Assembly: GCF_965641715.1 (NCBI RefSeq)
Contig: NZ_OZ282453.1
From: Escherichia coli
Lineage (GTDB): Bacteria; Pseudomonadota; Gammaproteobacteria; Enterobacterales; Enterobacteriaceae
Reading direction: 5' to 3' (one strand)
Length of the DNA stretch: 64,000 nt
Positions 39,133-51,743 of this stretch are shown here, piece by piece (the first letter of the stretch is position 1; every line of letters starts with the position of its first letter). The notes under the pieces were generated by a model. That model searched no databases. It was not told where the DNA came from and saw nothing but the letters and a program-made list of their open reading frames with translations. The position numbers and the translations under genes are program-made.

Positions 39133-40532
39133 ACACTCGCCAGCTACTGAGCGTCGGTATCGATATCGGCACCACCACCACCCAGGTGATTTTCTCCCAC
39201 CTGGAACTGGTTAACCGTGCGGCGGTGTCGCAGGTGCCGCGCTACGAATTCATCAAACGCGAAATTAGCTGGCAAAGCCCGGTGTTCTTTACCCCTGTCG
39301 ATAAACAGGGTGGTTTAAAAGAAGCGGAACTGAAATCGCTGATTTTAGAGCAATATCAGGCTGCGGGCATTGCGCCGGAAAGCGTTGATTCTGGTGCCAT
39401 CATCATCACCGGTGAAAGCGCGAAAACCCGCAATGCTCGCCCGGCGGTGATGGCGCTCTCTCAGTCGCTGGGCGATTTTGTCGTCGCCAGCGCCGGGCCG
39501 CACCTCGAATCCGTGATCGCCGGTCACGGTGCCGGGGCGCAAACCCTTTCTGAACAACGGCTGTGTCGGGTACTGAATATCGACATCGGCGGTGGCACCG
39601 CGAACTACGCCCTGTTCGATGCCGGAAAAATCAGCGGCACTGCCTGCCTCAACGTCGGTGGTCGCCTGCTGGAAACCGACAGCCAGGGGCGCGTGGTTTA
39701 CGCTCATAAACCGGGGCAGATGATTGTGGATGAGTGCTTCGGCGCAGGCACCGATGCCCGTTCGCTGACCGGCGCGCAGCTGGTGCAGGTTACCCGGCGG
39801 ATGGCAGAGCTGATTGTCGAAGTGATTGACGGAACGCTTTCGCCGCTCGCGCAGGCATTAATGCAAACCGGTTTGCTGCCCGCAGGTGTTACGCCCGAAA
39901 TCATTACGCTTTCTGGCGGCGTGGGCGAATGTTATCGCCACCAGCCCGCCGACCCGTTCTGTTTTGCCGATATTGGCCCGCTTCTGGCAACGGCGCTGCA
40001 TGACCATCCGCGCCTGCGTGAGATGAACGTGCAGTTTCCGGCGCAAACCGTGCGCGCCACGGTGATTGGTGCGGGTGCACATACCCTTTCGCTCTCTGGC
40101 AGCACAATCTGGCTGGAGGGCGTACAACTGCCGCTGCGCAATTTGCCGGTGGCGATCCCAATTGATGAAACGGATCTGGTGGGTGCCTGGCAACAGGCGC
40201 TGATTCAGCTGGATCTTGATCCCAAAACTGACGCGTACGTGCTGGCGCTTCCCGCCTCGCTGCCTGTGCGTTACGCCGCGGTACTGACGGTCATCAACGC
40301 GTTGGTCGATTTCGTCGCGCGTTTTCCGAATCCGAATCCCCTGCTGGTGGTGGCCGGGCAGGACTTTGGTAAAGCTCTGGGCATGTTGTTGCGCCCACAG
40401 CTACAACAACTCCCGTTGGCAGTCATTGACGAAGTGATTGTCCGCGCGGGGGACTATATCGACATTGGTACGCCTCTTTTTGGCGGATCGGTTGTGCCGG
40501 TGACGGTGAAATCACTCGCATTTCCTTCCTGA
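39129..40532 (+). CDS. eutA: ethanolamine ammonia-lyase reactivase EutA
   Basis: 467 aa MNTRQLLSVGIDIGTTTTQVIF...; stop TGA at 40530-40532 abuts the island. Confidence 0.85.
   Translation: MNTRQLLSVGIDIGTTTTQVIFSHLELVNRAAVSQVPRYEFIKREISWQSPVFFTPVDKQGGLKEAELKSLILEQYQAAGIAPESVDSGAIIITGESAKTRNARPAVMALSQSLGDFVVASAGPHLESVIAGHGAGAQTLSEQRLCRVLNIDIGGGTANYALFDAGKISGTACLNVGGRLLETDSQGRVVYAHKPGQMIVDECFGAGTDARSLTGAQLVQVTRRMAELIVEVIDGTLSPLAQALMQTGLLPAGVTPEIITLSGGVGECYRHQPADPFCFADIGPLLATALHDHPRLREMNVQFPAQTVRATVIGAGAHTLSLSGSTIWLEGVQLPLRNLPVAIPIDETDLVGAWQQALIQLDLDPKTDAYVLALPASLPVRYAAVLTVINALVDFVARFPNPNPLLVVAGQDFGKALGMLLRPQLQQLPLAVIDEVIVRAGDYIDIGTPLFGGSVVPVTVKSLAFPS
40525..40532. repeat. left junction direct repeat (att core candidate), overlaps the eutA stop codon
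   Basis: cttcctga, identical to 51725-51732; surrounding 20 bp are imperfectly similar. Confidence 0.5.
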
Positions 40533-40626
40533 ATACTGTAGTTATCAGGCGTGGCGCTGGGTGGCTGGGTGTTAGTGGGATTATATCCGGCTGTGTATCC
40601 GGTCGGGGTGATTGGTCTGTATAGCA

Positions 40627-40647
40627 GAAAACCCGGCGCGGGGCCGG
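40627..40647 (-). terminator. rho-independent terminator of the eutA-proximal cargo gene
   Basis: cccggc gcgg gccggg hairpin with a U tract on the minus-strand transcript; a near-identical copy is at 42316-42337. Confidence 0.6.
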
Positions 40648-40655
40648 GTGAACTA

Positions 40656-41216
40656 TCACTCAGGGAACAAGTTGATTTGAAGCAAACTGCCAATGTATTT
40701 ACCAGTGCTTTTAATTTTTCGCTTTGATGGCTTACACGAATTCAGGTTGACACCAGCCTGGCTAGATATTGGCTTGTATTGCCGCTCCGCCAGTACGATC
40801 AGGTCTGCCGCGTCTTTTAGCTTTCCATCGTTAGCCAGTTCCAATGCTCGATCCGCCATTTGCCCGCATTGTTGAATCAGCTTAAGTTGCGATACCTCCA
40901 GTCGCAATTGCTGGATTCGTTCTACCACTTTCGCCCTAATGCGCTTAGTTTCACGCATTCCCATTCTTAATGCCTGGTTGCCAGTAAGTGAGTAAACCTC
41001 TTTTTCTTTCCTGAAGTTTGCGGCTTTACCGTCAGCTTGGACGCGCATTTTATGCGCTTCCAAGAATTCGCCCTCCAATTCATCCCTGATCTTCGCGTTG
41101 AATCTGTCGTTCTTGAGTTCATTTAACCCTTCCGCCTTGCGGATCTGGTTGATTAACTCCAACAATTCATCACTGCGGATACGCCACTCGCTATCAACCT
41201 GTACCAAGTCAAACAT
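40656..41216 (-). CDS. hypothetical protein (island cargo); function unknown
   Basis: ORF track 40656..41309 begins at a TTG; the internal ATG at 41216 (MFDLVQVDSEWRIR...) has a GGGAG Shine-Dalgarno 6 nt upstream, giving 186 aa; basic C-terminus; own terminator. Confidence 0.55.
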   Translation of the reverse strand: MFDLVQVDSEWRIRSDELLELINQIRKAEGLNELKNDRFNAKIRDELEGEFLEAHKMRVQADGKAANFRKEKEVYSLTGNQALRMGMRETKRIRAKVVERIQQLRLEVSQLKLIQQCGQMADRALELANDGKLKDAADLIVLAERQYKPISSQAGVNLNSCKPSKRKIKSTGKYIGSLLQINLFPE

Positions 41217-41380
41217 GTTGTTGCTCCCGTTTTGCTGCCATAGGGCAACGGCTCGCCAGCCTTTATCACCTCCTTTAGTTGTTGCGATTCTTAACTGAAT
41301 GGTTATCAAAACGCTGCGTTAATATCATTGATATGTATCAAATTTGTTTTGTGACGCGACAATGCCTTGTGAATATCAAT

Positions 41381-41404
41381 AAAAAACCCAGCGCTATGGC
41401 TGGG
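41381..41404 (-). terminator. rho-independent terminator of the HTH cargo gene
   Basis: cccagc gctatg gctggg hairpin with a U tract on the minus-strand transcript. Confidence 0.55.
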
Positions 41405-41437
41405 CTTCGTTTAATGAGATGGGATTGAAAGCGGGTT

Positions 41438-42220
41438 TTATTTATCTCCCAGATTGTATTCCCAGTTGGGAAGTAAAGTTATCAGCTTGTCACCTTTCTT
41501 GCCTTTGCCGATCTGGTTGCCGTTCTCGTCTTTCTTGTGTGTGATTTCCTGGTCAACCTTAATCAATCCTCTCTCTTTGGCTTGCTCAATCAGTCGGTAG
41601 AATGCGCCGTTACTAATCGGCTTCCGGTTACCGTCGTTATCCATCGCAGTGATTTTCTGTTGCAGTCCGGCGTTATTGCCCAGGTATTCGCCACCTAACG
41701 CCGCCAGTACCTGACACAACATGCCGACACTGTATTTTTTCGGATTTGGGTTAATCCATTCTTTAGCTCCCATCTCTTTTTTGTCGTTGGGCGCTTGTTC
41801 TGCTGCTACTGCGTTCACCTTTTCATCTCCCATCTTGTTACCGCTTGCTGTGCGCTTAATTTCTTCCAGTTCTCTCTCAAGCTCACCTATACGTAATTCA
41901 CGCTCGATAATTACCCCGCGCAGCACATCATCATCACCGTGAGGGCTTGCCTGAATCCAGTTACCATTGGCGAGCGGTAGGAGGGCATAAATTCCGAACA
42001 GGTCACAAAGCGCGGCAAGTGTATTAAAATCAGGTTCCCGGCGTCCCTCCATCCAGTGGCTAACAGCGCCTTTTGTGACTGGTTCGCCTTTCTTGCTTTT
42101 AACACCCATGCGATCCAGTGCGGCGGCTATCTCTTCGCATTTAATGCCACGACCGCCAGCATAGCCCGCCGCTTTCGCGGCCCCTTTGAGGATGTCGTGA
42201 ATTTTCATTTCGTAACTCAT
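41438..42220 (-). CDS. XRE/Cro-C1-type helix-turn-helix domain protein (island cargo)
   Basis: ORF track 41438..42235; preferred start is the second ATG (MSYEMKIHD...) with a GGGAGA Shine-Dalgarno; HTH-like segment IKCEEIAAALDRMGVKSKKGEPVTKGAVSHWMEG; coiled-coil middle; Lys/Gly-rich C-terminus. Confidence 0.6.
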   Translation of the reverse strand: MSYEMKIHDILKGAAKAAGYAGGRGIKCEEIAAALDRMGVKSKKGEPVTKGAVSHWMEGRREPDFNTLAALCDLFGIYALLPLANGNWIQASPHGDDDVLRGVIIERELRIGELERELEEIKRTASGNKMGDEKVNAVAAEQAPNDKKEMGAKEWINPNPKKYSVGMLCQVLAALGGEYLGNNAGLQQKITAMDNDGNRKPISNGAFYRLIEQAKERGLIKVDQEITHKKDENGNQIGKGKKGDKLITLLPNWEYNLGDK

Positions 42221-42226
42221 AATTTT

Positions 42227-42257
42227 ATCTCCCATCTCATGAACTATGGTGGGAGAT
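42227..42257. promoter_or_regulatory. perfect 8-bp inverted repeat (atctccca N15 tgggagat) over the start region of the HTH gene
   Basis: Arms at 42227-42234 and 42250-42257; one arm contains the Shine-Dalgarno and first ATG of the minus-strand gene; tgggagat recurs at 42958-42965. Confidence 0.45.
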
Positions 42258-42315
42258 TAACACGGCGGGCCTGTGGCGGGTAAGTGTAACGGGAGAGAAT
42301 GTTGATTCAGGTCAC

Positions 42316-42337
42316 AAAAACCCGGCGCGGGGCCGGG
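42316..42337 (-). terminator. rho-independent terminator of the 158-aa cargo gene
   Basis: cccggc gcgg(g) gccggg hairpin with a U tract on the minus-strand transcript. Confidence 0.6.
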
Positions 42338-42359
42338 CTGTGTTAGTACGTCGTTGCTC

Positions 42360-42836
42360 TTAGTTCATGAGGAGATCTTTAAATTCGACGCCGTATTCAT
42401 GGGCAATGTCGCCTCTATAGTAGATGTTATCTTTCAGGATATATCCGACGTTTCTCAGGACGTGAGAACACTCTCTTACTGCTGCCTCTTTACCCCTTAA
42501 AACATCCTCCCCGCTAACTTCTTCGCCGCTGTACTTCACTGCGATGTTGTCTGCTGCACGCTCTGCTGCTTCCAGGCAATTAATCTTCACTTTTCCCCGA
42601 TTCTCCCAGGCAAAATCGCGGCCATAAATCCCCATTGCATCAACCATCTTTTGCGCAGTAGTGCGCTCATCCACCCATTCAGTGCGTTCGAACTTCTCGC
42701 CAGCAGCTACCCTTGCCGCCAGTTGTTCGTGTTGAGTCTGTACGGCCGCAGCCTCTTCTTCCCATTTGCCTTGCTCGTTGTATACGATGAAGCCAGTGAT
42801 GACTGCAGCGATTAGTAACTTGTCCAGAAAATTCAT
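42360..42836 (-). CDS. membrane-anchored hypothetical protein (island cargo)
   Basis: 158 aa; AGGAGG Shine-Dalgarno 5 nt upstream of the ATG; single N-terminal hydrophobic helix LLIAAVITGFIVY followed by a charged soluble domain. Confidence 0.6.
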   Translation of the reverse strand: MNFLDKLLIAAVITGFIVYNEQGKWEEEAAAVQTQHEQLAARVAAGEKFERTEWVDERTTAQKMVDAMGIYGRDFAWENRGKVKINCLEAAERAADNIAVKYSGEEVSGEDVLRGKEAAVRECSHVLRNVGYILKDNIYYRGDIAHEYGVEFKDLLMN

Positions 42837-43120
42837 AGCTTCCTCCTATCTGTTCAATTACCCGGCATCTCTTGCCGTTGAACGTATTAAACAAAATGCC
42901 AGTCAGGGATAAAGCGATCTGCGTCATAAAGTCCATCCCCCATCTCATTGATATTGATGGGAGATTGTTTAATTGGTCAGAAATTAAGCGTTTATGTGCG
43001 CTGCCGGGTATCCACCTCCTATCTGAAGATGGAAAGATGGGTGATATAATGTGATGGCAATTGGTGGATTGCGTGGTTTTTACAATGATAAGGGGCTGGC
43101 GTAATGCTGGCCCCTTTGTT

Positions 43121-43162
43121 TATCCGGTATCCGGTATCCGGTATAAGCGGGCGTGTATCCGG
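43121..43162. repeat. cluster of four tatccgg motifs (three tandem 7-mers plus one)
   Basis: tatccggtatccggtatccggtataagcgggcgtgtatccgg; related copies at 40584-40602 and, inverted, at 51558-51565. Confidence 0.5.
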
Positions 43163-43356
43163 TAGCGGGGATATGGGCGCGTGTACGTGAAATCTGGCAA
43201 ATTAGCAGGGTAATTGTGAGGGAATTTTTGCGTAGGAGCGTTTGTGGCTGGTAGCTCAAAATTGAGCTTTGCTTTTCATTCAATGACTTAGGTTAATTCT
43301 AGCAAAACGCTAGGATTGAATGTCCGCCAGTCTGCTTCCCCTAGCGTGGGATTTGG

Positions 43357-45723
43357 TCAACGTCTGCGCGGCTGCAAAATTCCTCCGGGTCGTTGTGATT
43401 CACGCTGCATCAGTCGCATCGCTGTGTTTTCTATGGTCTGCTGCAGCGCTTTTGAGTCTTCCTCTGTCCAGCCGTTGTTAGCCTGGATGTTGAACGTATT
43501 GTTCATCGTGATTCCGCCACCGCCTACCAGATCGCGGCCCGGTGTAACTCGTCCACCTTCACCCGGGATCATGTACTGTTTCCCGCCAGTGGATGTAAAT
43601 AGCTCCGGTACTCCGTGCTCCCCGACCCTATAAAGATTGCCACCGTTAACAGCCCCGCCGTTGTAACGAGCGCCAGCCAGTCCAAGCGTTTTGGCGGCAG
43701 CTACGCCAGTAGTAAGCCCGGTAAGTCCAGTGGCCCCAGCGCCGCCCATCGTGGCTACGTTAGCCAGGTATGCAGGAGTGGCCCACGCCGATCCTAATGC
43801 TGTAGCCTCTGCTAGTGCTTTAGCTGTTGCGGCTGCGTTTGCGGCTTCACCAATTAGCTGCTGTTTAACCCACTCAGCACCCATCTGGACAATGCCACCG
43901 ACCACAGAAGACAGGATCGTACTGCCAACGTTGGCAAGTGACTCTTGCAGCGATTGAGTACCGTTTATCAGTCCGGTAAATGCGCTGCCAGCGCCAGACG
44001 ATAACCCATCGACCATATTCCCGATGAGGCCATTTATATCGCTTTGTTTCTTCCACTGCTGCCACTGGAGATCCAGAACCCTTTGTTCATGTGCGATCTC
44101 TTCCTGGCGCAACTGCTCTTCGGTAGCCCCAAGATCTAGAAGCATTTGCTTGCGAACAGCCCATTCATTTTGGATCTTCTGTATTGGGTCAATCTGAGCT
44201 TTCTGCTTATCCTGCTCACTGACAAGACTGTCCCATTTCGCTTTCTGCTTGCGGATGGCTTCAGCTTCATCAATTGCTGCGAGTGTACTTGCTCGCTGTT
44301 TCGCGCTGATCAACCGTTTCTGCTCAGCCGCTTCCAGGTCTTCTACTGCTTTTTTCCGTTTATTGAGCGCCGCTAGTTCGGGATCGTATTTTTCCACCAA
44401 TGAAAGGCCGCTTGCTTCCTTACGTTCGCGTTCTCTTTGTGCCTGTTTGGCTGCCTGCTTAGCGGCGTTTTCTGCTTGTTTGGCTGCTCTTTCTTTCGCC
44501 CTGGTGTTCTCTTCTTCCTTGCGCTTATTCTCTTCTAACTCCTTGTTTTGTTCGCGTAATTTAACGATTTCCTCATGATGCGCCTTTGTCAGCTGGCCTT
44601 CTTTCAGTGCCCGATCTATATCAGCGTTTGCGTTGCCTTTTAGCTGTTCCTGTTTAACTTGCAGATGTTTAATCATCATTTCGCCAGTGGCAATCGCTGC
44701 CGCAGACGCTCCAGCATTCAGAGCTTCATTTAACGCTCTCTGACGTTCTTCTGCTGTTAATGCCTCGTTGCTGTATCGAAGTAGCGCATCAACGTATTTC
44801 TCCAGTTCTGCGCGGCCTGCCGCAGTTGCTGGTTCCATTGCTTTTAGGATGCTCAGAAGGCTTTGCGCTTCATAGGAAGACGGGTTTTTGCGGAACTGCG
44901 CCATAGCGTTATAAAGCGCCATAGCTTCACCCTCTGTGATTCTGTACTTAGCTCCCAGCCCTTCAATGACCGCTGATAACTGTTTGCCAAGCGCTGCACC
45001 GAATGCGCCTTCCTTGCTTAATTTGTTGAGCACTTCACTCAGTGAATTTCCTGACACGCCCAGCGCGTCGAGTTCTCTTGCTACCGTTCCCAGGTCGCCG
45101 CCTTTCATCCATCCTGCATTAGAAAATTCAGTGATAGCCCGGCCCGCTTCCCGCGTTTCTTCCTGGAGTGTTTTTAGCGCCCGCACGGCCTGCTCTTTCA
45201 TTACGGCGGCGGCAATGGCGTTGTTCTGTGTGGCTTCGTAATATGAATCACTGAAAGCGTTAACGCCCTGGGTGGATTTGCCGATCACGGCGTCGATTGA
45301 TGCTAATGCCTCCTTCATCCTTTCAGCGCTATCCGTTGCGTCGTCCATGCTGTCCGTTAGGCTGTTGGCAATCGCCCCGCCAATAGCCATCACCGCCCCC
45401 ATGACCGCACCGCCAGTACCGAAGGCAGCGGCAAGTTGTGCACCCTGCACAGCGAACGCCTGGAGCGCATTACCGCCCATCTGCAATTGAGTGGCAAGGT
45501 CTGCGATCTGGTATGATGCGTTACGGATTGCCGGGGAAAGGTTGGTTTTGACTGCGGCAGACGTTTTGGTCATCTGCGTGTTCAGTTTTTTGACGCCACT
45601 GTCAGCGCGTTTTGCGCCGCGTTCTATACTGTCAAAAGCCTGGTCCGCTTCTTGTTGTGCTGCCAGGAGTTTACCAGTACGGGCGTCGACCTCATAGTAT
45701 ATGGTCCCAAGATTCCCACTCAT
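43357..45723 (-). CDS. phage tail tape-measure protein, lambda gpH-like
   Basis: 788 aa; N-terminal Gly/Ala-rich hydrophobic segment (GGAVMGAVMAIGGAI); long Ala/Lys/Glu/Gln-rich coiled-coil centre; C-terminal Gly-rich region with NLYR and NNTFNIQ motifs resembling the lambda H C-terminus as recalled; no Walker A motif. Confidence 0.7.
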   Translation of the reverse strand: MSGNLGTIYYEVDARTGKLLAAQQEADQAFDSIERGAKRADSGVKKLNTQMTKTSAAVKTNLSPAIRNASYQIADLATQLQMGGNALQAFAVQGAQLAAAFGTGGAVMGAVMAIGGAIANSLTDSMDDATDSAERMKEALASIDAVIGKSTQGVNAFSDSYYEATQNNAIAAAVMKEQAVRALKTLQEETREAGRAITEFSNAGWMKGGDLGTVARELDALGVSGNSLSEVLNKLSKEGAFGAALGKQLSAVIEGLGAKYRITEGEAMALYNAMAQFRKNPSSYEAQSLLSILKAMEPATAAGRAELEKYVDALLRYSNEALTAEERQRALNEALNAGASAAAIATGEMMIKHLQVKQEQLKGNANADIDRALKEGQLTKAHHEEIVKLREQNKELEENKRKEEENTRAKERAAKQAENAAKQAAKQAQRERERKEASGLSLVEKYDPELAALNKRKKAVEDLEAAEQKRLISAKQRASTLAAIDEAEAIRKQKAKWDSLVSEQDKQKAQIDPIQKIQNEWAVRKQMLLDLGATEEQLRQEEIAHEQRVLDLQWQQWKKQSDINGLIGNMVDGLSSGAGSAFTGLINGTQSLQESLANVGSTILSSVVGGIVQMGAEWVKQQLIGEAANAAATAKALAEATALGSAWATPAYLANVATMGGAGATGLTGLTTGVAAAKTLGLAGARYNGGAVNGGNLYRVGEHGVPELFTSTGGKQYMIPGEGGRVTPGRDLVGGGGITMNNTFNIQANNGWTEEDSKALQQTIENTAMRLMQRESQRPGGILQPRRR

Positions 45724-46012
45724 AATATCTTTATCCGCGTTGTGCGGACACCTCCGATTATTCTTTACTCTAATAATTTCACAATGAAACAGTTTATTGC
45801 CGCTTCAGTGGCTTCGTGTTCCGGTTTGCTTCGATCAATCACAAAAAATACAGCTTAATAGAATCAATGGCTTATAAAGTTGTATTAGCTATGTTTCTTC
45901 GTCCGTGCCACTGAAAACCCAGTTTTTCCAATGGAATCAATACTGATATGTATCCATACTGTTTTTCACATAATGTACGTTATGCGCACTACGGGAAACG
46001 TACTGAATTTAT

Positions 46013-46243
46013 TTACTGGTCGCCGTTCAGTTCATGCAGAGTCTGTTCTGGCAATGAATCCAGCCAGTTTTCTGCATCCTCCCTGTAACACTCCAGGATG
46101 CAACGGTTTGTGAAGTTGATGAAAGCGGTCAGTGATTCTGCTTCGTCGTTCCTGTGCGTTCTCCTGGCGTGCTTGCGTAGTCGTTTCGCGTCTGCCAGTT
46201 GGTCATTGAGTATCTTCAGTCTGTCGGCAATATCATCGTTCAT
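46013..46243 (-). CDS. hypothetical small protein
   Basis: 76 aa; GGGAGA Shine-Dalgarno 6 nt upstream of the ATG. Confidence 0.45.
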   Translation of the reverse strand: MNDDIADRLKILNDQLADAKRLRKHARRTHRNDEAESLTAFINFTNRCILECYREDAENWLDSLPEQTLHELNGDQ

Positions 46244-46430
46244 GTCGTCTCTCCCTCGCGCGCGCGTCGTACTTGTCCGAAAATTACCCCCATAAAAGCG
46301 CCCCTCATATAGTGCAAAATCCCGGCTGACGCGGATCTCAGTGGGTTTTAGCAGTGAAAACTGACATCAAAAACGGCTCGCTAAGGTCCGCTAAGTATCC
46401 GCTATCGTTCGCTAACCCCCCGCTAACCTA

Positions 46431-46796
46431 TTAGATATCGCATCCAACGCTATTGAGCTGGCTATGTATATCGGCGCGAATTAACTTCAGGCGTTTACAA
46501 AATTCGCGTTCTTCCGAATTAAGCTCGCGGCCACCTTGTTTCGAGGCAATGAGCTTGTTGATGGTGGAAAGCGAATATTCACTCCATATACGAAGCATTT
46601 GTCGCTTCATTGGTTGCTCGCTCAATGGTGAGTTTTTCAGGTCTGACACGCGCTCTGCGACGGTTCTTGCGATGCCTTGTACCACTCGTAGTGCCAACAT
46701 GATGATTTTCTCCGGACTTGTGCTAATATAGTTCCCGAACATTGTTTCGAGACTGCTTATCCTGTTTGTCTTGTCCGATTTGTTCATTGGTCGCAT
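46431..46796 (-). CDS. hypothetical protein
   Basis: 121-aa ORF in the same orientation as, and closely spaced with, the upstream 180-aa ORF. Confidence 0.45.
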   Translation of the reverse strand: MRPMNKSDKTNRISSLETMFGNYISTSPEKIIMLALRVVQGIARTVAERVSDLKNSPLSEQPMKRQMLRIWSEYSLSTINKLIASKQGGRELNSEEREFCKRLKLIRADIHSQLNSVGCDI

Positions 46797-46838
46797 TGTT
46801 AAGTCAGCCGGGGTAATTCCCGGCTTTCTTTTATCCGA

Positions 46839-47381
46839 TCAGTACCGAATCCCTATCGCATTGAATACGCGTTTCCGTTGCTCAGCTTCAGGATCGGCGG
46901 CCATTTCTGGTTCTGGCTCCGGCATAGACGGGGCGGCATCAAAATGCTCAATTTCACGACCGAAATACGAGTTCAGGTCAATACCTGCCGAACTATCCAC
47001 TCCATCAAAATAGCGACGCTGTTCCTCGGTGAGACAGCTACCCAGACGTTCCTCAACCTGCGCCATAAACTCAGCATCCGGTGAGAAGTACTCATCCGGA
47101 GTCGGAGCACCGCTCTGTTTGTGCATCTCCATTTTCTCTGCGTTCGTTTTCAGCCCGGCAATGCGTTTCTCCAGTCCGGCGGCTTTAATAGCGTCAGCAA
47201 CGATTTGTGGGATCTGCGGTTTAATTATTTCGATAACTTCATTGCTGATTAATTTAAACTGGGCCATACGGATCGCTTTAATCTGCTTATTTAACAGTGC
47301 GCGTTCCCCTTCGTTGGCGGTTTTATCACGCTGTGCTACCAGTTCATCGCCTTTGTTTGTCAGTACATCAAATGCGTCCAT
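46839..47381 (-). CDS. hypothetical protein
   Basis: 180 aa; strong GGAGGAGG Shine-Dalgarno 7 nt upstream; acidic Pro/Glu-rich C-terminal tail; 17 nt downstream of the 108-aa ORF. Confidence 0.55.
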   Translation of the reverse strand: MDAFDVLTNKGDELVAQRDKTANEGERALLNKQIKAIRMAQFKLISNEVIEIIKPQIPQIVADAIKAAGLEKRIAGLKTNAEKMEMHKQSGAPTPDEYFSPDAEFMAQVEERLGSCLTEEQRRYFDGVDSSAGIDLNSYFGREIEHFDAAPSMPEPEPEMAADPEAEQRKRVFNAIGIRY

Positions 47382-47398
47382 TGTCTTTCCTCCTCCGA

Positions 47399-47725
47399 TT
47401 ATTTAAAAGTGCTTATTGACACGCCGAAACGACGACTTAATTCAAAAAGGAGTCGCGCCTTTGCAGTGCCTTCCATGTCTTCCGGCATTTCAGACTGAAG
47501 TTTATCAGCTACTTCATCAACAAGTGGCCGAACCGTTTCCACGAACTTGTCCGCAATATAATCAGCAGAACGCATCACTTTTTCCTGGAATTCCTCACGG
47601 CGTACCTGGGCGGCTGATTTAGGGGCTGTCGTGCGCTGAAAATAACTGTCTAATGAATGCATGGCATCTGCTCCTTTTACTTTGATTGCTGTTATTTCTT
47701 TAATTGTGTTTGCTTTGATTTTCAT
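47399..47725 (-). CDS. hypothetical protein
   Basis: 108-aa ORF starting 76 nt downstream of the AlpA-like gene. Confidence 0.5.
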   Translation of the reverse strand: MKIKANTIKEITAIKVKGADAMHSLDSYFQRTTAPKSAAQVRREEFQEKVMRSADYIADKFVETVRPLVDEVADKLQSEMPEDMEGTAKARLLFELSRRFGVSISTFK

Positions 47726-47801
47726 GCTGCCTATTCCTTCAGAAATTGCGGTAGTTTGCTTTTTAAATCAATAAGTTATTTGATAATCTCAGTAGCTGTT
47801 T

Positions 47802-47993
47802 TCATTGGTGGCGAGCGCCTTTGTTTTTATAGAATTCCAAAATCTCAGATCGGATAAACTTAATTCTTGAGCCAATCGGACTGACCGGGACGGGCCAGCC
47901 TTTAATCTTGTTCATCCACCGGAATATTGTCCGACGGGTAACGCCGAATAAAGCTGCTACCTCGTTAACCGTCATTAATTCGCTATCATTCAT
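47802..47993 (-). CDS. excisionase / AlpA-family DNA-binding protein
   Basis: 63 aa; HTH MTVNEVAALFGVTRRTIFRWM typical of excisionase-family domains; GAGGTGA Shine-Dalgarno. Confidence 0.7.
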   Translation of the reverse strand: MNDSELMTVNEVAALFGVTRRTIFRWMNKIKGWPVPVSPIGSRIKFIRSEILEFYKNKGARHQ

Positions 47994-48003
47994 GTTCTCA
48001 CCT

Positions 48004-48046
48004 CAAAAAGTAGCGGTGAGGAAAATATGGAGAAAACCCTCACCGC
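48004..48046 (-). promoter_or_regulatory. terminator-like hairpin in the leader of the AlpA-like gene (candidate attenuator)
   Basis: Minus-strand RNA reads GCGGUGAGG, 16-nt loop, CCUCACCGC, UACUUUUU, then GAGGUGAGAAC AUG; the 3' arm could alternatively pair with the Shine-Dalgarno. Confidence 0.45.
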
Positions 48047-48220
48047 GCCCTGAATGAAATTAAAGACCAACATTACTGTTGATACTTATTATTATATTCC
48101 TCCTGTCCCTGTTTCACATCTTTTACCATATAGTGAAAGGGGATATTCTGTAATGTTTACAAAACTTTTAATTAGCAAAAAATAATTGCGCATCTCACGT
48201 AATGCAGGGATAATATTACT

Positions 48221-48306
48221 CAAGGGCTGGTTGCCCTTACTCAAAATGTGATCTATAACTACAACGATCTATTTCACTTCCCCGCTTTCTCCGGCGGGAT
48301 TTTTTT
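48221..48306 (+). ncRNA. candidate small RNA (~86 nt), divergent from the AlpA-like operon
   Basis: Promoter-like TTGCGC (48186-48191), 17-bp spacer, GATAAT (48209-48214); internal hairpin agggctggttgccct; terminator cccgc tttctccg gcggg plus T7 at 48281-48306; no ORF. Confidence 0.4.
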
Positions 48307-49115
48307 GCCTGCAATCTGGCACCATTGCGCACATTAAAATTAGATGCCATTTAAAAGCGATATAACGCGTTCTGCCGGGCTTAATTTTGGCTATCCACTT
48401 GGAAGGGTAAGCCTGTTTTGATTCGTCTGGCGTGGAATGGTGCGGCGGTAATATCAGATCTCAGCGTTCTGCGTGGTGGGATGAAATAGCCTGGCAGGAT
48501 TTGCGTGTGGTTTGCTCTCCCAAAAAATGGGGTAATGGCGCTGGCTGGATGGCAGGACTCCGCGCTGATTACTGGATGGCTGAAAATTTAATGAAATCGC
48601 ATCAATTTTAATGCGTCTAAATCGCTCTGTGGCGACGTGAAGTTTTCAGGTAAGCAAGTGTAGCTGTGTGGTGTGTTCATCGCGTTACTGGCACCATTCC
48701 GTTCGAATTTGGCGCTATCAGGATGGTTTGCGGTGGTCGGCGGCGGGGATAAACTTGCTTGAGTGGTCACCTCAGCCTGCTGTGCGTCGTGTGATGGTAC
48801 TGTCTGCACCTGGCTATACGCTGCTTTGCTGCTGTTTCCTGTCTGGTCTGTATACGCGATAAAACCCATCGGCTTTACAGTGAGTGAGTTTTTTGCGCTT
48901 TGCTTTCCATTCGGTTTGCTTACTGCTGCTGTGTGTCTGTGCGGTAGCTCAGAAAGCTGTCGATGATAACCATCACTGCCAGACCGTCTTTTGAGCTGGC
49001 GATTGCTCGAAGTCTTCCGAAGGTCCGCTGGGCTTGTTGCTTGTTTGTGTTCTTTTAAAATGCGCGCCTCTTACTTTCTCTTAAAAAGAAAAAAGGAATA
49101 TACAGATCTCATACT

Positions 49116-49275
49116 ATGTGTGTCCCAAATGTCACACGTCATGGCCTGACCTGTATCCCAAATGTCACACGTCACCCTCTGACCTGTATCCCAAATGTCA
49201 CACGTACCTGTGTCCCAAATGTCACACGTCTATTGTTAATTAATTGTTGACCTGTGTCTCAAATGTCACACGTCT
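49116..49275. repeat. iteron array: five direct repeats of about 22 bp
   Basis: Copies start at 49116, 49149, 49182, 49206, 49250 (spacings 33, 33, 24, 44 bp); core cccaaatgtcacacgt; AT-rich ttgttaattaattgttga between copies 4 and 5. Confidence 0.7.
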
Positions 49276-49292
49276 GTTGATGGTTTAAGTAA

Positions 49293-49319
49293 TAAAAAGG
49301 GCCACCATTTTAGGTGACC
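49293..49319 (-). terminator. rho-independent terminator of the wHTH gene
   Basis: gggccacc atttta ggtgaccc hairpin (one G-U pair) with a U tract on the minus-strand transcript. Confidence 0.5.
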
Positions 49320-49338
49320 CATTGATGCGTTTTAGTCG

Positions 49339-50103
49339 TTATCTTGCGTTCTCGACCTGAAAAAGCATTCTGTATTTTCTTGCGTGCTGACCAATAACAT
49401 ATTCCCCGTATGGCTCAATGAGTCCTAACTCAACCAGGATTTTCATCTGGCGAATTACGGTGCGGCGATTCATGCCCCATTCATCAGCTATTTTTGCCTG
49501 GCAAACTTCAGATACATAAGATCCATCATTCTGCTTTCTTGCTGCTGATGCAATGCTGGATAATACGCTCCAGGCTGTAGCTTTAGCTTTATTCTCGCAA
49601 CCACTTCTGACAAATGCCTTACGTGCCGCACCCAAACAGACATAACTGCAATAAATTCCTTTTTCTTCCGTTTGGTATTGTGTCTCTTTATCCTGCATGG
49701 CTTCCGGTTCTTCCGGCGCTTCCTGCTGTGGTGCTGTCTGCGAAGTTTTAGCGGCCATACTGCGTAGCTCGTTCACGATATCAGTAGCTGATTTCTTCTC
49801 GCTTTTAGTTTCCTGCGTGACTGATAAATACTCACCTTGTAACGCCAGGAAGTCAGCGCGGGCGTTTGCCTGGCTTTGTTCTGGTGATTCAGGTTCTGCA
49901 TCGGCAGGTGATGAAATCGGTGATACACGCGCCCAGCCTGTTTTGGCGTTGCATTCCCAGCGATAACCATTAAAGCGGATATCATTCAGGCCATCATCAA
50001 TGGCGCTCCGTACTTCTTCCGGGATCGCGTCGATTTTCTGAAGGCTGTGTTTACCGAGTGATTCGCCTTGCCGTGGGGCGTAGGCGGTTGGTAAAATATT
50101 CAT
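49339..50103 (-). CDS. winged-helix DNA-binding protein, putative replication initiator or repressor
   Basis: 254 aa; AAGGAGA Shine-Dalgarno; acidic low-complexity middle; C-terminal HTH-like EVCQAKIADEWGMNRRTVIRQMKILVELGLIE; iteron array immediately downstream. Confidence 0.5.
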   Translation of the reverse strand: MNILPTAYAPRQGESLGKHSLQKIDAIPEEVRSAIDDGLNDIRFNGYRWECNAKTGWARVSPISSPADAEPESPEQSQANARADFLALQGEYLSVTQETKSEKKSATDIVNELRSMAAKTSQTAPQQEAPEEPEAMQDKETQYQTEEKGIYCSYVCLGAARKAFVRSGCENKAKATAWSVLSSIASAARKQNDGSYVSEVCQAKIADEWGMNRRTVIRQMKILVELGLIEPYGEYVIGQHARKYRMLFQVENAR

Positions 50104-50315
50104 GTGGGATTTCTCCTTTTTACTTGTTTCCCATATCGCCCGGATTGGTTAGCGGCCTTCCGGGCTTTTTGTTGCGTTGATCCTATTTTCGATCCCCGGA
50201 TTTTTTATTACAAACTTGGCTTAATCATTGATTTTATTGGTATAGCTGTATAAAAGGATAACAGGATAAAAGGGTGATAGATTGTGTAACCTGTTAACCT
50301 TTTATACCAGTAAGG

Positions 50316-50342
50316 CGAAAGAAAAGCCGGACGAATCCGGCC
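50316..50342 (-). terminator. rho-independent terminator after the integrase gene
   Basis: gccgga cgaa tccggc hairpin with a U-rich tract, 8 nt past the integrase stop. Confidence 0.5.
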
Positions 50343-50349
50343 TTATAGT

Positions 50350-51555
50350 TCACGGCTCCAGCGGATTACCGCCACCAGCCAATATCTGGTCGATGGCGTC
50401 GCTGTAGTCCTGCATCATGGCCCGCCGTTGCTTCAGATAGGCCGCCTGGTTATAAACGCCGCGCACACCTTTCGGAACGTGGGCCAGTTGGATTTCGATC
50501 CAGTCTGGTGAGTATCTGCCGTACTCGTTAAGTGCGGTTGAAAAGGTGGTTCGCCAGCCGTGACCAGTGGCTATCGACTTGTATCCGATACGCTCCAGGG
50601 CTTTAAGGATGGCACTGGCTGAAAGTGGCTTATCCATGAATCGACCAGGGAACACAAAAGCACTGTATCCGCTGCGGGTAAACTGGTCCTGTAATAGCTC
50701 GACCGCCTGCCGGGATAGCGGGACCACATGCGGGCGGCGGGCCTTCATGACTTCAGCGGGTAGGGTGATGGTTGCCGATTCCAGATCTACCCACTCCCAG
50801 CGCATTAAACGCAGTTCTGCGGTCCTTAGGGCGCTTAATATAAGCAAACGTATTGCCGTCTGAATCTGAACGCTCCCGGCTCTCTCAAGGGCTTTGTAGA
50901 AGGCCGGGATTTCGTTAATTTGTATCCATGCGTTATGGCCTGGGCGTCGGGCTTTCAATGCCGTGTCCAGATCTGCAACCGGATTTCGGTTAACCAGTTC
51001 AGTGATAACGGCAAATTTGAAGATTTCCCCTATACGCTGCCGTAATTTTCGGGCCTGTTCCGGCGCGGTGCGCTCTTTCTTCTGAAGCAATGCCAGCACG
51101 TCACGGGCCGTTATATCGACAATCGACCGCTTGCCAAGTACCGGATAAACATCTTTCTCCAGTGCCGATCTAACTTGTTTCGTGTAAGACTCAGACCAAC
51201 CGCTCACTCTGGTAGCAAACCAGTCTTCCGCTACCGTCTTAAAACTTGCCGCCATGTTGAGCGCATCAATGGCTTTCTCCTTGCGCGCTTCTTCCATTGG
51301 GTCAATTCCCTGGGCGATGAGTAAACGGCTCTCTGTGGCGCGTTTACGTGCTTCCTTCAAGGTAATCAGCGGATATACCCCAATAGCCTGTAACCGCTCT
51401 TTCTTGTCTATCCAGTACCGGAATCGCCAGTATTTGCTGCCATTGGGATGTACCAGCAAGAACAGGCCAGGTGTCTGTGAATCGGTGAGTTTGTAGGGCT
51501 TGTCCTTCGGCTGGGCGGCCTCTATGCCCTTTGCTGTCAGTGGTGTCTTGCTCAA
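50350..51555 (-). CDS. P4-type tyrosine integrase (site-specific recombinase), intZ-like
   Basis: 401 aa; N-terminal arm-binding domain (PYKLTDSQTPGLFLLVHPNGSKYWRFRY); C-terminal catalytic region with the HGWRTTFSTALNE and RGVYNQAAY motifs. Confidence 0.85.
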   Translation of the reverse strand: MSKTPLTAKGIEAAQPKDKPYKLTDSQTPGLFLLVHPNGSKYWRFRYWIDKKERLQAIGVYPLITLKEARKRATESRLLIAQGIDPMEEARKEKAIDALNMAASFKTVAEDWFATRVSGWSESYTKQVRSALEKDVYPVLGKRSIVDITARDVLALLQKKERTAPEQARKLRQRIGEIFKFAVITELVNRNPVADLDTALKARRPGHNAWIQINEIPAFYKALERAGSVQIQTAIRLLILSALRTAELRLMRWEWVDLESATITLPAEVMKARRPHVVPLSRQAVELLQDQFTRSGYSAFVFPGRFMDKPLSASAILKALERIGYKSIATGHGWRTTFSTALNEYGRYSPDWIEIQLAHVPKGVRGVYNQAAYLKQRRAMMQDYSDAIDQILAGGGNPLEP

Positions 51556-51724
51556 AACCGGATACCTCGATCTAACGACTCGATAACCCCGCTCATGTAT
51601 CCGTCGCGTTCGGTTGCGTTCGGCAGGATAAGTAACGGGCGTATTAAGTGGAACACCTTACAGGACAAGGGATAACGATGAAATAGAATTGTTCGAATGC
51701 TGTGAAAAATGTTACTCATCACTT

Positions 51725-51732
51725 CTTCCTGA
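51725..51732. repeat. right junction direct repeat (att core candidate), immediately 5' of the eutB ribosome-binding site
   Basis: cttcctga, identical to 40525-40532; followed by gggaacgactt ATG (eutB). Confidence 0.5.
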
Positions 51733-51743
51733 GGGAACGACTT

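Follow-up and report, generated by a model that had tools for sequence, protein, structure and literature searches.

A gene for a 254-amino-acid (aa) winged-helix protein and the five direct repeats that follow it are probably the replication module (initiator plus origin, oriV) of an integrative island of the CPZ-55 family. The module was found in a 64,000-nucleotide (nt) stretch of Escherichia coli chromosome, called the window here, where it adjoins intZ in an 11.2-kb island. The first-pass annotation, made from the letters of the window, had proposed an initiator beside an iteron origin. Comparative and computational evidence supports this: repeat sequence covaries with the predicted DNA-binding domain, the two are exchanged as one cassette, DnaA boxes adjoin arrays of several relatives, and related elements occur as plasmids.

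On the minus strand the order is intZ, a regulatory region, the 254-aa gene, a terminator, the repeats, an AT-rich tract and then the alpA side of the island. The features of the module are:

49339..50103, minus strand: putative replication initiator gene, 254 aa, an open reading frame (ORF) with an AAGGAG ribosome-binding site; counterpart of K-12 YffL
49342..49656, minus strand: part coding for the C-terminal winged-helix domain (aa ~150-254), the class of which predicts the repeat sequence in 13 loci
49299..49320, minus strand: rho-independent terminator of the gene, GGGTCACC-loop-GGTGGCCC and then TTTTT
49275..49283, minus strand: degenerate DnaA-box-like site CCATCAACA, three mismatches to TTATCCACA, abutting the first repeat
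49253..49273, minus strand: repeat 1, reading ACGTGTGACATTTGAGACACA in the direction of the gene, with a single core mismatch
49230..49252, no strand assigned: AT-rich spacer between repeats 1 and 2, seen in the sequence, absent together with repeat 1 from the four-repeat variant L018
49209..49229, minus strand: repeat 2, ACGTGTGACATTTGGGACACA
49185..49205, minus strand: repeat 3, from the repeat search
49152..49172, minus strand: repeat 4, from the repeat search
49119..49139, minus strand: repeat 5, from the repeat search
49040..49118, no strand assigned: AT-rich tract and GC clamp, proposed DNA-unwinding element, reading TAGTATGAGATCTGTATATTCCTTTTTTCTTTTTAAGAGAAAGTAAGAGGCGCGC on the minus strand, with GATC at 49105-49108
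49027..49702, minus strand: exchangeable cassette of ~675 nt (linker and winged-helix coding part, terminator, box-like site, repeats, AT-rich tract) with conserved flanks

The five repeats share one orientation, start at 49119, 49152, 49185, 49209 and 49253 and span 49119-49273, so the 33/33/24/44 spacing described in the first-pass annotation is correct. Four of the five copies have the 16-nt core CCCAAATGTCACACGT unchanged, and the fifth departs from it at one position. The core is matched nowhere else in the 64-kb window except at a site inside eutB with three mismatches; no further copies with ≤2 mismatches were found in the window. None of 100 shuffles reached six matches (mean 0.5). The array is located 3' of the gene as first described, and its first repeat begins 66 nt past the stop codon, with the terminator in between. 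The helical phasing also claimed for the array is no more than approximate, with 3.1 and 4.2 turns for 33 and 44 bp but 2.3 turns for 24 bp. Short plus-strand ORFs at 49116-49250 were discarded as artefacts of the repeats.

The AT-rich stretch originally noticed between copies 4 and 5 is present (49230-49252). However, it is missing in the four-repeat variant, and for this reason the spacer is not the conserved candidate for unwinding; the conserved tract lies at ~49040-49118, beyond the other end of the array. The 70 nt past the last repeat are 69% A+T (GC 0.33 at 49060-49119), and the tract ends in GGCGCGC.

An alignment of the protein family gives three parts: a conserved N-terminal region (aa 1 to ~133), an acidic, PQE-rich disordered linker and a variable C-terminal winged helix. 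The N-terminal region is more than 75% conserved in full-length members, while shorter members retain only MNILPTAYA and KSEKKSAxDIVNELRSKA. The C-terminal domain splits into several classes, some of which can barely be aligned with one another. The helix-turn-helix-like region reported for the C-terminus matches Pfam HTH_36 (PF13730; i-Evalue 8.8e-5, residues 180-229). PF13730 is also precomputed for many homologues, and other winged-helix models match the C-terminus too. AlphaFold2 predicts a confident winged helix at residues ~150-250 with a predicted local distance difference test score (pLDDT) of ~85 and the element order helix 171-186, strand, helix 202-209, helix 213-225, wing. Residues 64-150 are predicted to be disordered, and the N-terminal half as a whole is mostly disordered with pLDDT <60. 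Weak matches to three PHROG "replication initiation protein" families were detected at aa 176-242 (E 6e-4 to 6e-3). No match was found in NCBIfam and PADLOC searches, and sequence and fold searches of the PDB returned generic winged helices only; the protein was not named by homology.

The family is tiny. A phmmer search against 1.84 billion representatives returned 15 proteins, and the named matches in word-index searches were all Escherichia-type. Relatives were absent from 50,697 phage genomes and from IMG/VR. Both halves of the protein are under purifying selection: the ratio of nonsynonymous to synonymous rates (dN/dS) is 0.14-0.27 in the N-terminal half, and in the C-terminal half the proportion of nonsynonymous differences (pN) is ~0.14-0.16 with synonymous differences (pS) saturated at ~0.76-0.80. 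The positional counterpart in K-12 is the uncharacterised yffL (L008, NC_000913.3, 4258-5046), with which the linker motif NELR(S/N)KA is shared. An identical yffL is present on the Klebsiella plasmid KY751926.

The comparison set consisted of 13 loci plus plasmid forms. All 13 loci, including K-12 yffL, carry an array of the same orientation at the same position. Arrays start 55-96 nt past the stop codon across the loci; in the plasmid forms the array instead follows a small coupled downstream gene. The tract past each array is 53-73% A+T. Array sequences, in contrast, differ between classes:

ACGTGTGACATTTGGGA: window, L017, L014, L009, L018
ACCCCTGACACCAGAAACAGGGGT: L003, with 45/24/33/33 spacing and the same layout as the window
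AACTCGTTATCATTCTGAGCAC: L002, L015
CACCCCCACCAAATTTGGGCTAC: L005, L016
GACCCCCACCAAAAATTGGCTAC: L010
GGTGGGTCAAAAGTTGCCG: K-12 yffL, four 23-bp direct repeats 3' of the gene
CCATGTCCCACCAC: L011, L012
TTCTCCATTGCGTATAGATTCTATAC: L019

The relatives have 2-6 repeats per array. Among near-identical islands there are four copies in L018, five in the window and six in L017, and the four-repeat variant is the commonest near-identical form. Such variation between 4, 5 and 6 copies is as expected of iteron arrays.

Across the set, repeat class tracks the class of the C-terminal winged helix and not the N-terminus, the integrase (Int) or the attachment (att) site. L016 has an N-terminus 92.5% identical to that of the window protein and an Int 96% identical, but its C-terminus is only 30% identical and its repeats differ (CACCCCCACCAAAT). 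Conversely, L002 sits at another att site and has a 31%-identical Int, yet its repeats are the same as those of the eut-site island L015. The C-terminus of L009 is 74% identical to that of the window protein, with the same recognition helix (RRTVIRQM) and an identical repeat core. In this pair the C-terminal synonymous sites are saturated (pS 0.80), yet the core is still identical. L003 is intermediate: the C-terminus is 67% identical, the helix reads SRTVSRQT and the repeat is related but distinct, with 14 of 24 positions in common in a hand alignment. This pattern points to the C-terminal winged helix, the putative DNA-binding domain, as the specificity-determining part of the protein.

Using blastn, similarity of the window to L002, L005, L010 and L016 stops at nucleotide ~400 of the gene, which is the domain junction. 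It returns ~90 nt past the last repeat in L002 and L005 and only further downstream in L016; in L010 it does not return within the compared region. One edge thus falls at the domain junction and the other where the AT-rich tract ends, and everything between them (winged helix, terminator, repeats, tract) is best described as one exchangeable cassette. The tract itself (~49040-49118) is nearly identical in L003 and L009. L011, L012 and L019 have tracts sharing (G/A)TAAG motifs and a GC clamp, and other classes carry different AT-rich tracts. The (G/A)TAAGAG motifs, GATC and the GC clamp are common to the window lineage and the distant plasmid forms.

Some loci preserve only parts of an island. 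In the deletion derivatives L020 (NZ_CP101263.1, 2129-2559) and L015 just the C-terminal winged-helix half and the repeats are left. Both have lost int, and in L020 eutB is missing its 5' end as well. L001, the closest genome, has an intZ-eutB junction at which each of the two genes is truncated.

DnaA boxes were found beside the arrays of several relatives. At the position of the box-like site, L003 and L009 read TTATCAACA, L005 reads TTATCCATA, and L016, L011 and L012 have the perfect TTATCCACA. L012 has a second perfect box, inverted, past the AT-rich tract, and in L019 one that is perfect lies ~30 nt upstream of the array; each of these relatives was counted as having a DnaA box. Of 7 independent classes, 3 have a box with ≤1 mismatch directly at the first repeat, a count reached by none of 20,000 shuffles.

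Three related elements of 8-9 kb are small separate molecules, two of them shown or recorded to be circular. NZ_CP062859 and NZ_CP062904 (L012/L013) are 8,009-bp records from two strains and are exact rotations of each other, and neither host genome contains a chromosomal copy. Plasmid pRHB34-C15_2 (L019, CP057168.1), of 9,003 bp, was deposited as a complete circular record. The 8.3-kb contig L011 represents a third type of small separate element. The plasmid forms keep the gene order of the islands (initiator, array, AlpA-like gene, HNH, small ORFs, TerS-like gene), with a serine recombinase of the DNA-invertase type where the islands have IntZ. They contain no other replication gene recognisable by PHROG searches, no replicon type in the PLSDB typing line shown, and no match to any Rfam family, hence no ColE1-type RNA.

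The plasmid forms also have 12-bp tandem repeats upstream of the initiator gene (GATGTAACGGTC three times in L012, 5550-5585; GAAAAGGTCGAT at the ends of L011). These adjoin an XRE-type regulator and could be an operator, a res site or a centromere.

Together the comparisons support a cognate pair of initiator and origin. In the proposed mechanism the 254-aa protein would bind the five 21-nt repeats through its C-terminal winged helix, and the resulting nucleoprotein complex would open the adjoining AT-rich tract. In the relatives, DnaA at the box abutting the first repeat may assist the opening. The host replisome (DnaB/DnaC, DnaG, Pol III) or that of a helper phage would then be recruited. 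Recruitment, including that of the helicase, would probably go through the surface of the conserved N-terminal region, where MNILPTAYA and KSEKKSAxDIVNELRSKA are found. Profile searches of the island proteins found no primase or helicase among the island ORFs, in agreement with the first-pass annotation, and replication would therefore rely on host or helper machinery. Dependence on host DnaB/DnaC/DnaG, as in iteron plasmids, is favoured because the plasmid forms persist without an obvious helper; input from a helper phage after induction may still occur. The exchange of winged-helix domain and origin as one cassette would produce several specificity classes resembling incompatibility groups.

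Several observations weigh against this interpretation. The homology signal to known initiators is weak (the PHROG matches of E 6e-4 to 6e-3), and the fold is that of a generic winged helix, to which repressors match at least as well as RepA_N proteins. The window array has no DnaA box with ≤1 mismatch near it, its own box position being degenerate (three mismatches). The window island also looks partly decayed: it is without a TerS homologue and carries a decayed cargo gene. Given these losses and the CCATCAACA reading at the box position, the copy in the window may itself be weakened. The proteins of the plasmid forms are only 25-43% identical to the window protein in the C-terminus, their N-termini are unrelated, and another replication function could be concealed among the uncharacterised small ORFs of these plasmids. 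Their cumulative GC skew has its peak within 30-150 nt of the array, but since the polarity is not that of a bidirectional origin the skew was treated as uninformative. A mobilome study saw no extrachromosomal CPZ-55 circles in K-12 (bioRxiv 10.1101/2024.07.17.603846). Finally, covariation of protein and repeats could partly reflect the linkage of two adjacent segments. However, each cassette has the same array architecture and the core is identical despite saturated synonymous sites, which argues for function beyond adjacency.

It is unlikely that the winged-helix protein is instead a repressor or activator, with the repeats as operators for read-through into, or for a promoter of, the downstream alpA and morphogenesis genes in an immunity/induction switch. 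The fold matches many repressors (CodY, ArsR/SmtB, MarR, Fur), and some repeat classes are semi-palindromic, such as ACCCCTG-N10-CAGGGGT in L003. There is a minus-strand sigma-70-like match that overlaps the last repeat, but promoter-like matches occur at chance level (4 found, 3.8 expected). The array is placed between the int/HTH genes and the alpA operon but lies ~1.1 kb upstream of alpA. No copy of the repeat is found at the promoter of the gene itself (50104-50349) or anywhere else in the island. Four to six copies of one orientation, the AT-rich tract and the flanking DnaA boxes fit an origin, and the extrachromosomal relatives need a replicon for which no other candidate was found.

The region upstream of the gene bears on the same question.

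50104..50315, minus strand: promoter and leader region of the 254-aa gene, with a 21-nt inverted repeat at 50248-50307 and no repeat-like site

This regulatory region, between the intZ terminator and the gene, is ~210 nt long, and its upstream (promoter) cassette exists in at least two versions that assort independently of repeat class. An autoregulatory operator was therefore rejected, and the idea of repressor operators, which the first-pass annotation had offered as its alternative, is weakened. The leader has a GATC cluster conserved in relatives (GATCCnGGGATCGAAAATnnGATCAAC), of which two GATC are intact in the window.

There is a smaller chance still that the repeats are a centromere-like or packaging-recognition site and the protein an adaptor, like TubR/ParR or lambda Nu1-cosB, for partition or for terminase capture under a helper phage. 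The fold matches include TubR, a winged-helix protein that binds direct repeats of a centromere, but neither the island nor the plasmids have a recognisable partition NTPase (ParA, ParM, TubZ). Packaging hijack is plausible because island relatives encode a TerS-like protein and an HNH endonuclease, and the excisionase-like small protein of the island also has weak matches to TerS PHROGs. However, the TerS-like proteins are encoded separately and far from the array, the window island has the array but no TerS homologue, and neither centromeres nor pac sites are characterised by DnaA boxes and an AT-rich tract. That the repeats are arm-type or directionality-factor accessory sites for IntZ or the excisionase is largely refuted and very improbable: the P4-type Int has an arm-binding domain and its gene is within 1.1-2.4 kb of them, but Int is 92-96% identical in eut-site islands with completely different repeats, L002 with its distant Int and other site shares its repeat with eut-site L015, ~2.4 kb separate the array from the nearer end of the island, the architecture is unchanged in plasmid forms that have a serine recombinase, and integrase arm sites were rejected since Int identity does not follow repeat class.

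An initiator with its origin thus remains the preferred reading, and it can be compared with known replicons. Enterobacterial iteron plasmids (pSC101, P1, F, R6K, RK2) have Rep_3-type initiators and repeats of ~22 bp spaced 22-33 bp, with an adjacent AT-rich unwinding element, DnaA boxes at the array edge and GATC in the AT-rich tract. An iteron theta replicon has at least three repeats of ~17-24 bp in the same orientation beside an initiator gene; the window has five. The module and its relatives also resemble these plasmids in the direct repeats, the AT-rich tract with GATC and the edge DnaA boxes, although the box in the window is degenerate, and the lack of a helicase would make sense if the module relied on host DnaA/DnaB. 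Unlike in iteron plasmids, there is no inverted half-iteron operator at the rep promoter. Membership in Rep_3 (PF01051) was rejected: no match was obtained even at E up to 10, and one winged helix is predicted, not two.

The lambdoid O/ori system is modular in a comparable way. One domain of the O initiator binds the iterons and covaries with them, and the other is conserved for replisome recruitment; in lambda, the iterons are inside the O gene, the DNA-binding domain is N-terminal and the helicase loader P is encoded beside O. The likeness lies in the exchange of predicted DNA-binding domain and ori together between relatives. Membership in the lambda O type was rejected (no match to PF04492, Phage_rep_O; repeats outside the ORF).

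In the Rep-ori modules of Staphylococcus aureus pathogenicity islands and phage-inducible chromosomal islands (SaPI/PICI), the origin is reportedly 3' of the initiator gene and has iterons and an AT-rich region. The arrangement found here is the same, with the origin candidate directly 3' of the putative initiator gene. Further likenesses are the occurrence of Rep and ori in several specificities and the location of the module, close to int on a phage-related island that has AlpA/TerS-type genes. In SaPI/PICI the Rep protein is a helicase and comes with a primase (PMC7145576). The 254-aa protein, unlike Pri-Rep, has no NTPase domain, and no NTPase or primase domain was found in the island ORFs.

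The closest parallel for an initiator-only island replicon is RepA/ori of the phage-inducible chromosomal island-like element (PLE) of Vibrio cholerae. PLE RepA belongs to RepA_N and binds DNA via its N-terminal domain (Barth et al., NAR 2020, PMC7145576), RepA_N iterons are described as semi-palindromic, and PLE replication strictly needs phage ICP1 (both PMC7145576). Semi-palindromic repeats also occur in several of the classes compared here. Unlike in PLE RepA, the DNA-binding domain here is predicted to be C-terminal, and there is no Pfam RepA_N match. In fold, the protein resembles generic winged helices at least as closely as the RepA_N (PF06970) structures 4pta, 4pql and 4pt7. RepA_N membership was rejected, as no profile matched and the predicted DNA-binding domain is at the C-terminus rather than being N-terminal and DnaD-like. 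While PLE depends on ICP1, the module has relatives that are maintained as plasmids and have DnaA boxes, pointing to host dependence. The only family membership of the 254-aa protein is the generic HTH_36 winged helix: it fits no established Rep family, although the module appears to work like an iteron replicon.

The island and its integrase gene are:

40533..51725, no strand assigned: island of the CPZ-55 type, inserted between eutA and eutB and flanked by the 8-bp direct repeat CTTCCTGA
50350..51555, minus strand: intZ, P4-type tyrosine integrase, upstream neighbour of the module; Int 92-96% identical among eut-site islands of any repeat class

The island lies between the end of eutA (40532) and the eutB ATG (51745), and the copies of CTTCCTGA are at 40525-40532 and 51726-51733. 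The insertion point is the CPZ-55/intZ site of K-12, for which the same target duplication has been reported (PMC6379469). A hairpin and T-run at ~50316-50341 were read as the intZ terminator, although the terminator scan had flagged the hairpin on the plus strand. On the minus strand the AT-rich tract is followed by ~1.1 kb without an intact gene, then an AlpA/excisionase-like gene (47993-47802), small ORFs and a tape-measure homologue. No Rfam family matched on the island.

The tape-measure homologue (43357-45723, minus strand) is full-length (PHROG 1538, E 8e-112), and its nearest phage relatives are in the mEp021 group of coliphages (52-60% identity). The 11-kb island has no capsid, portal or large terminase, while related islands also encode an Sf6-type TerS and the HNH endonuclease. 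The island appears to be an undescribed element of the satellite type, and mEp021-like phages are candidate helpers. The RefSeq label "nucleotide exchange factor GrpE", carried by a homologue of the 217-aa island protein (40656-41309, minus strand), is not supported by Pfam, which gave no GrpE match; the 217-aa protein has weak anti-repressor matches in PHROGs.

A decayed, reverse-oriented cargo gene is found at 48575-48944 (plus strand) in two frames, 43% identical to a 145-aa protein of L005, and a terminator-like hairpin is present near it at 48281-48305 (plus strand). The content of the cargo slot varies among relatives; in L006 it is a YafO toxin. The stretch at ~48600-49026, immediately past the origin cassette, is conserved at the nucleotide level across repeat classes although its frames differ between elements. 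Part of it is kept in the plasmid forms and it has no Rfam match; it could be a pac/cos site, a leader RNA or a helicase-loading region.

Literature searches covering CPZ-55, yffL and satellites that carry a tape-measure gene brought up no work on how this family replicates, and no paper was found that treats CPZ-55 or YffL as a replicon. If the module is an initiator with its origin, YffL-type proteins and the adjoining repeats of CPZ-55-type islands would gain a function, and a helicase-less initiator family with a C-terminal DNA-binding domain would join a short list of satellite and island replicons. How initiators of the PLE RepA type recruit the replisome is an open question (PMC7145576), and for helicase-less initiators it could be addressed here with E. 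coli genetics. The naturally swapped cassettes, with at least eight repeat classes on near-identical backbones, would be a panel for the study of initiator-iteron specificity and incompatibility. Because the small plasmids show no PLSDB replicon type, the module is also a candidate marker for a currently untypeable replicon group.

More tentatively, the module may be the specificity-and-origin cassette of an unrecognised family of small hitcher elements of E. coli, of which the K-12 CPZ-55 "prophage" would be a decayed member. Such elements could have two lifestyles, as an island integrated by IntZ between eutA and eutB or as a free 8-9 kb plasmid with a serine recombinase, both with phage-parasitising genes (TerS, HNH, the mEp021-group tape-measure homologue). 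Their initiators could form a new helicase-less family in which disordered N-terminal motifs capture the replisome, and cassette swaps might create incompatibility groups for coexistence or competition. If this wider view is correct, E. coli would harbour a satellite-like family with two lifestyles, swappable origin cassettes and a new type of helicase-less initiator.

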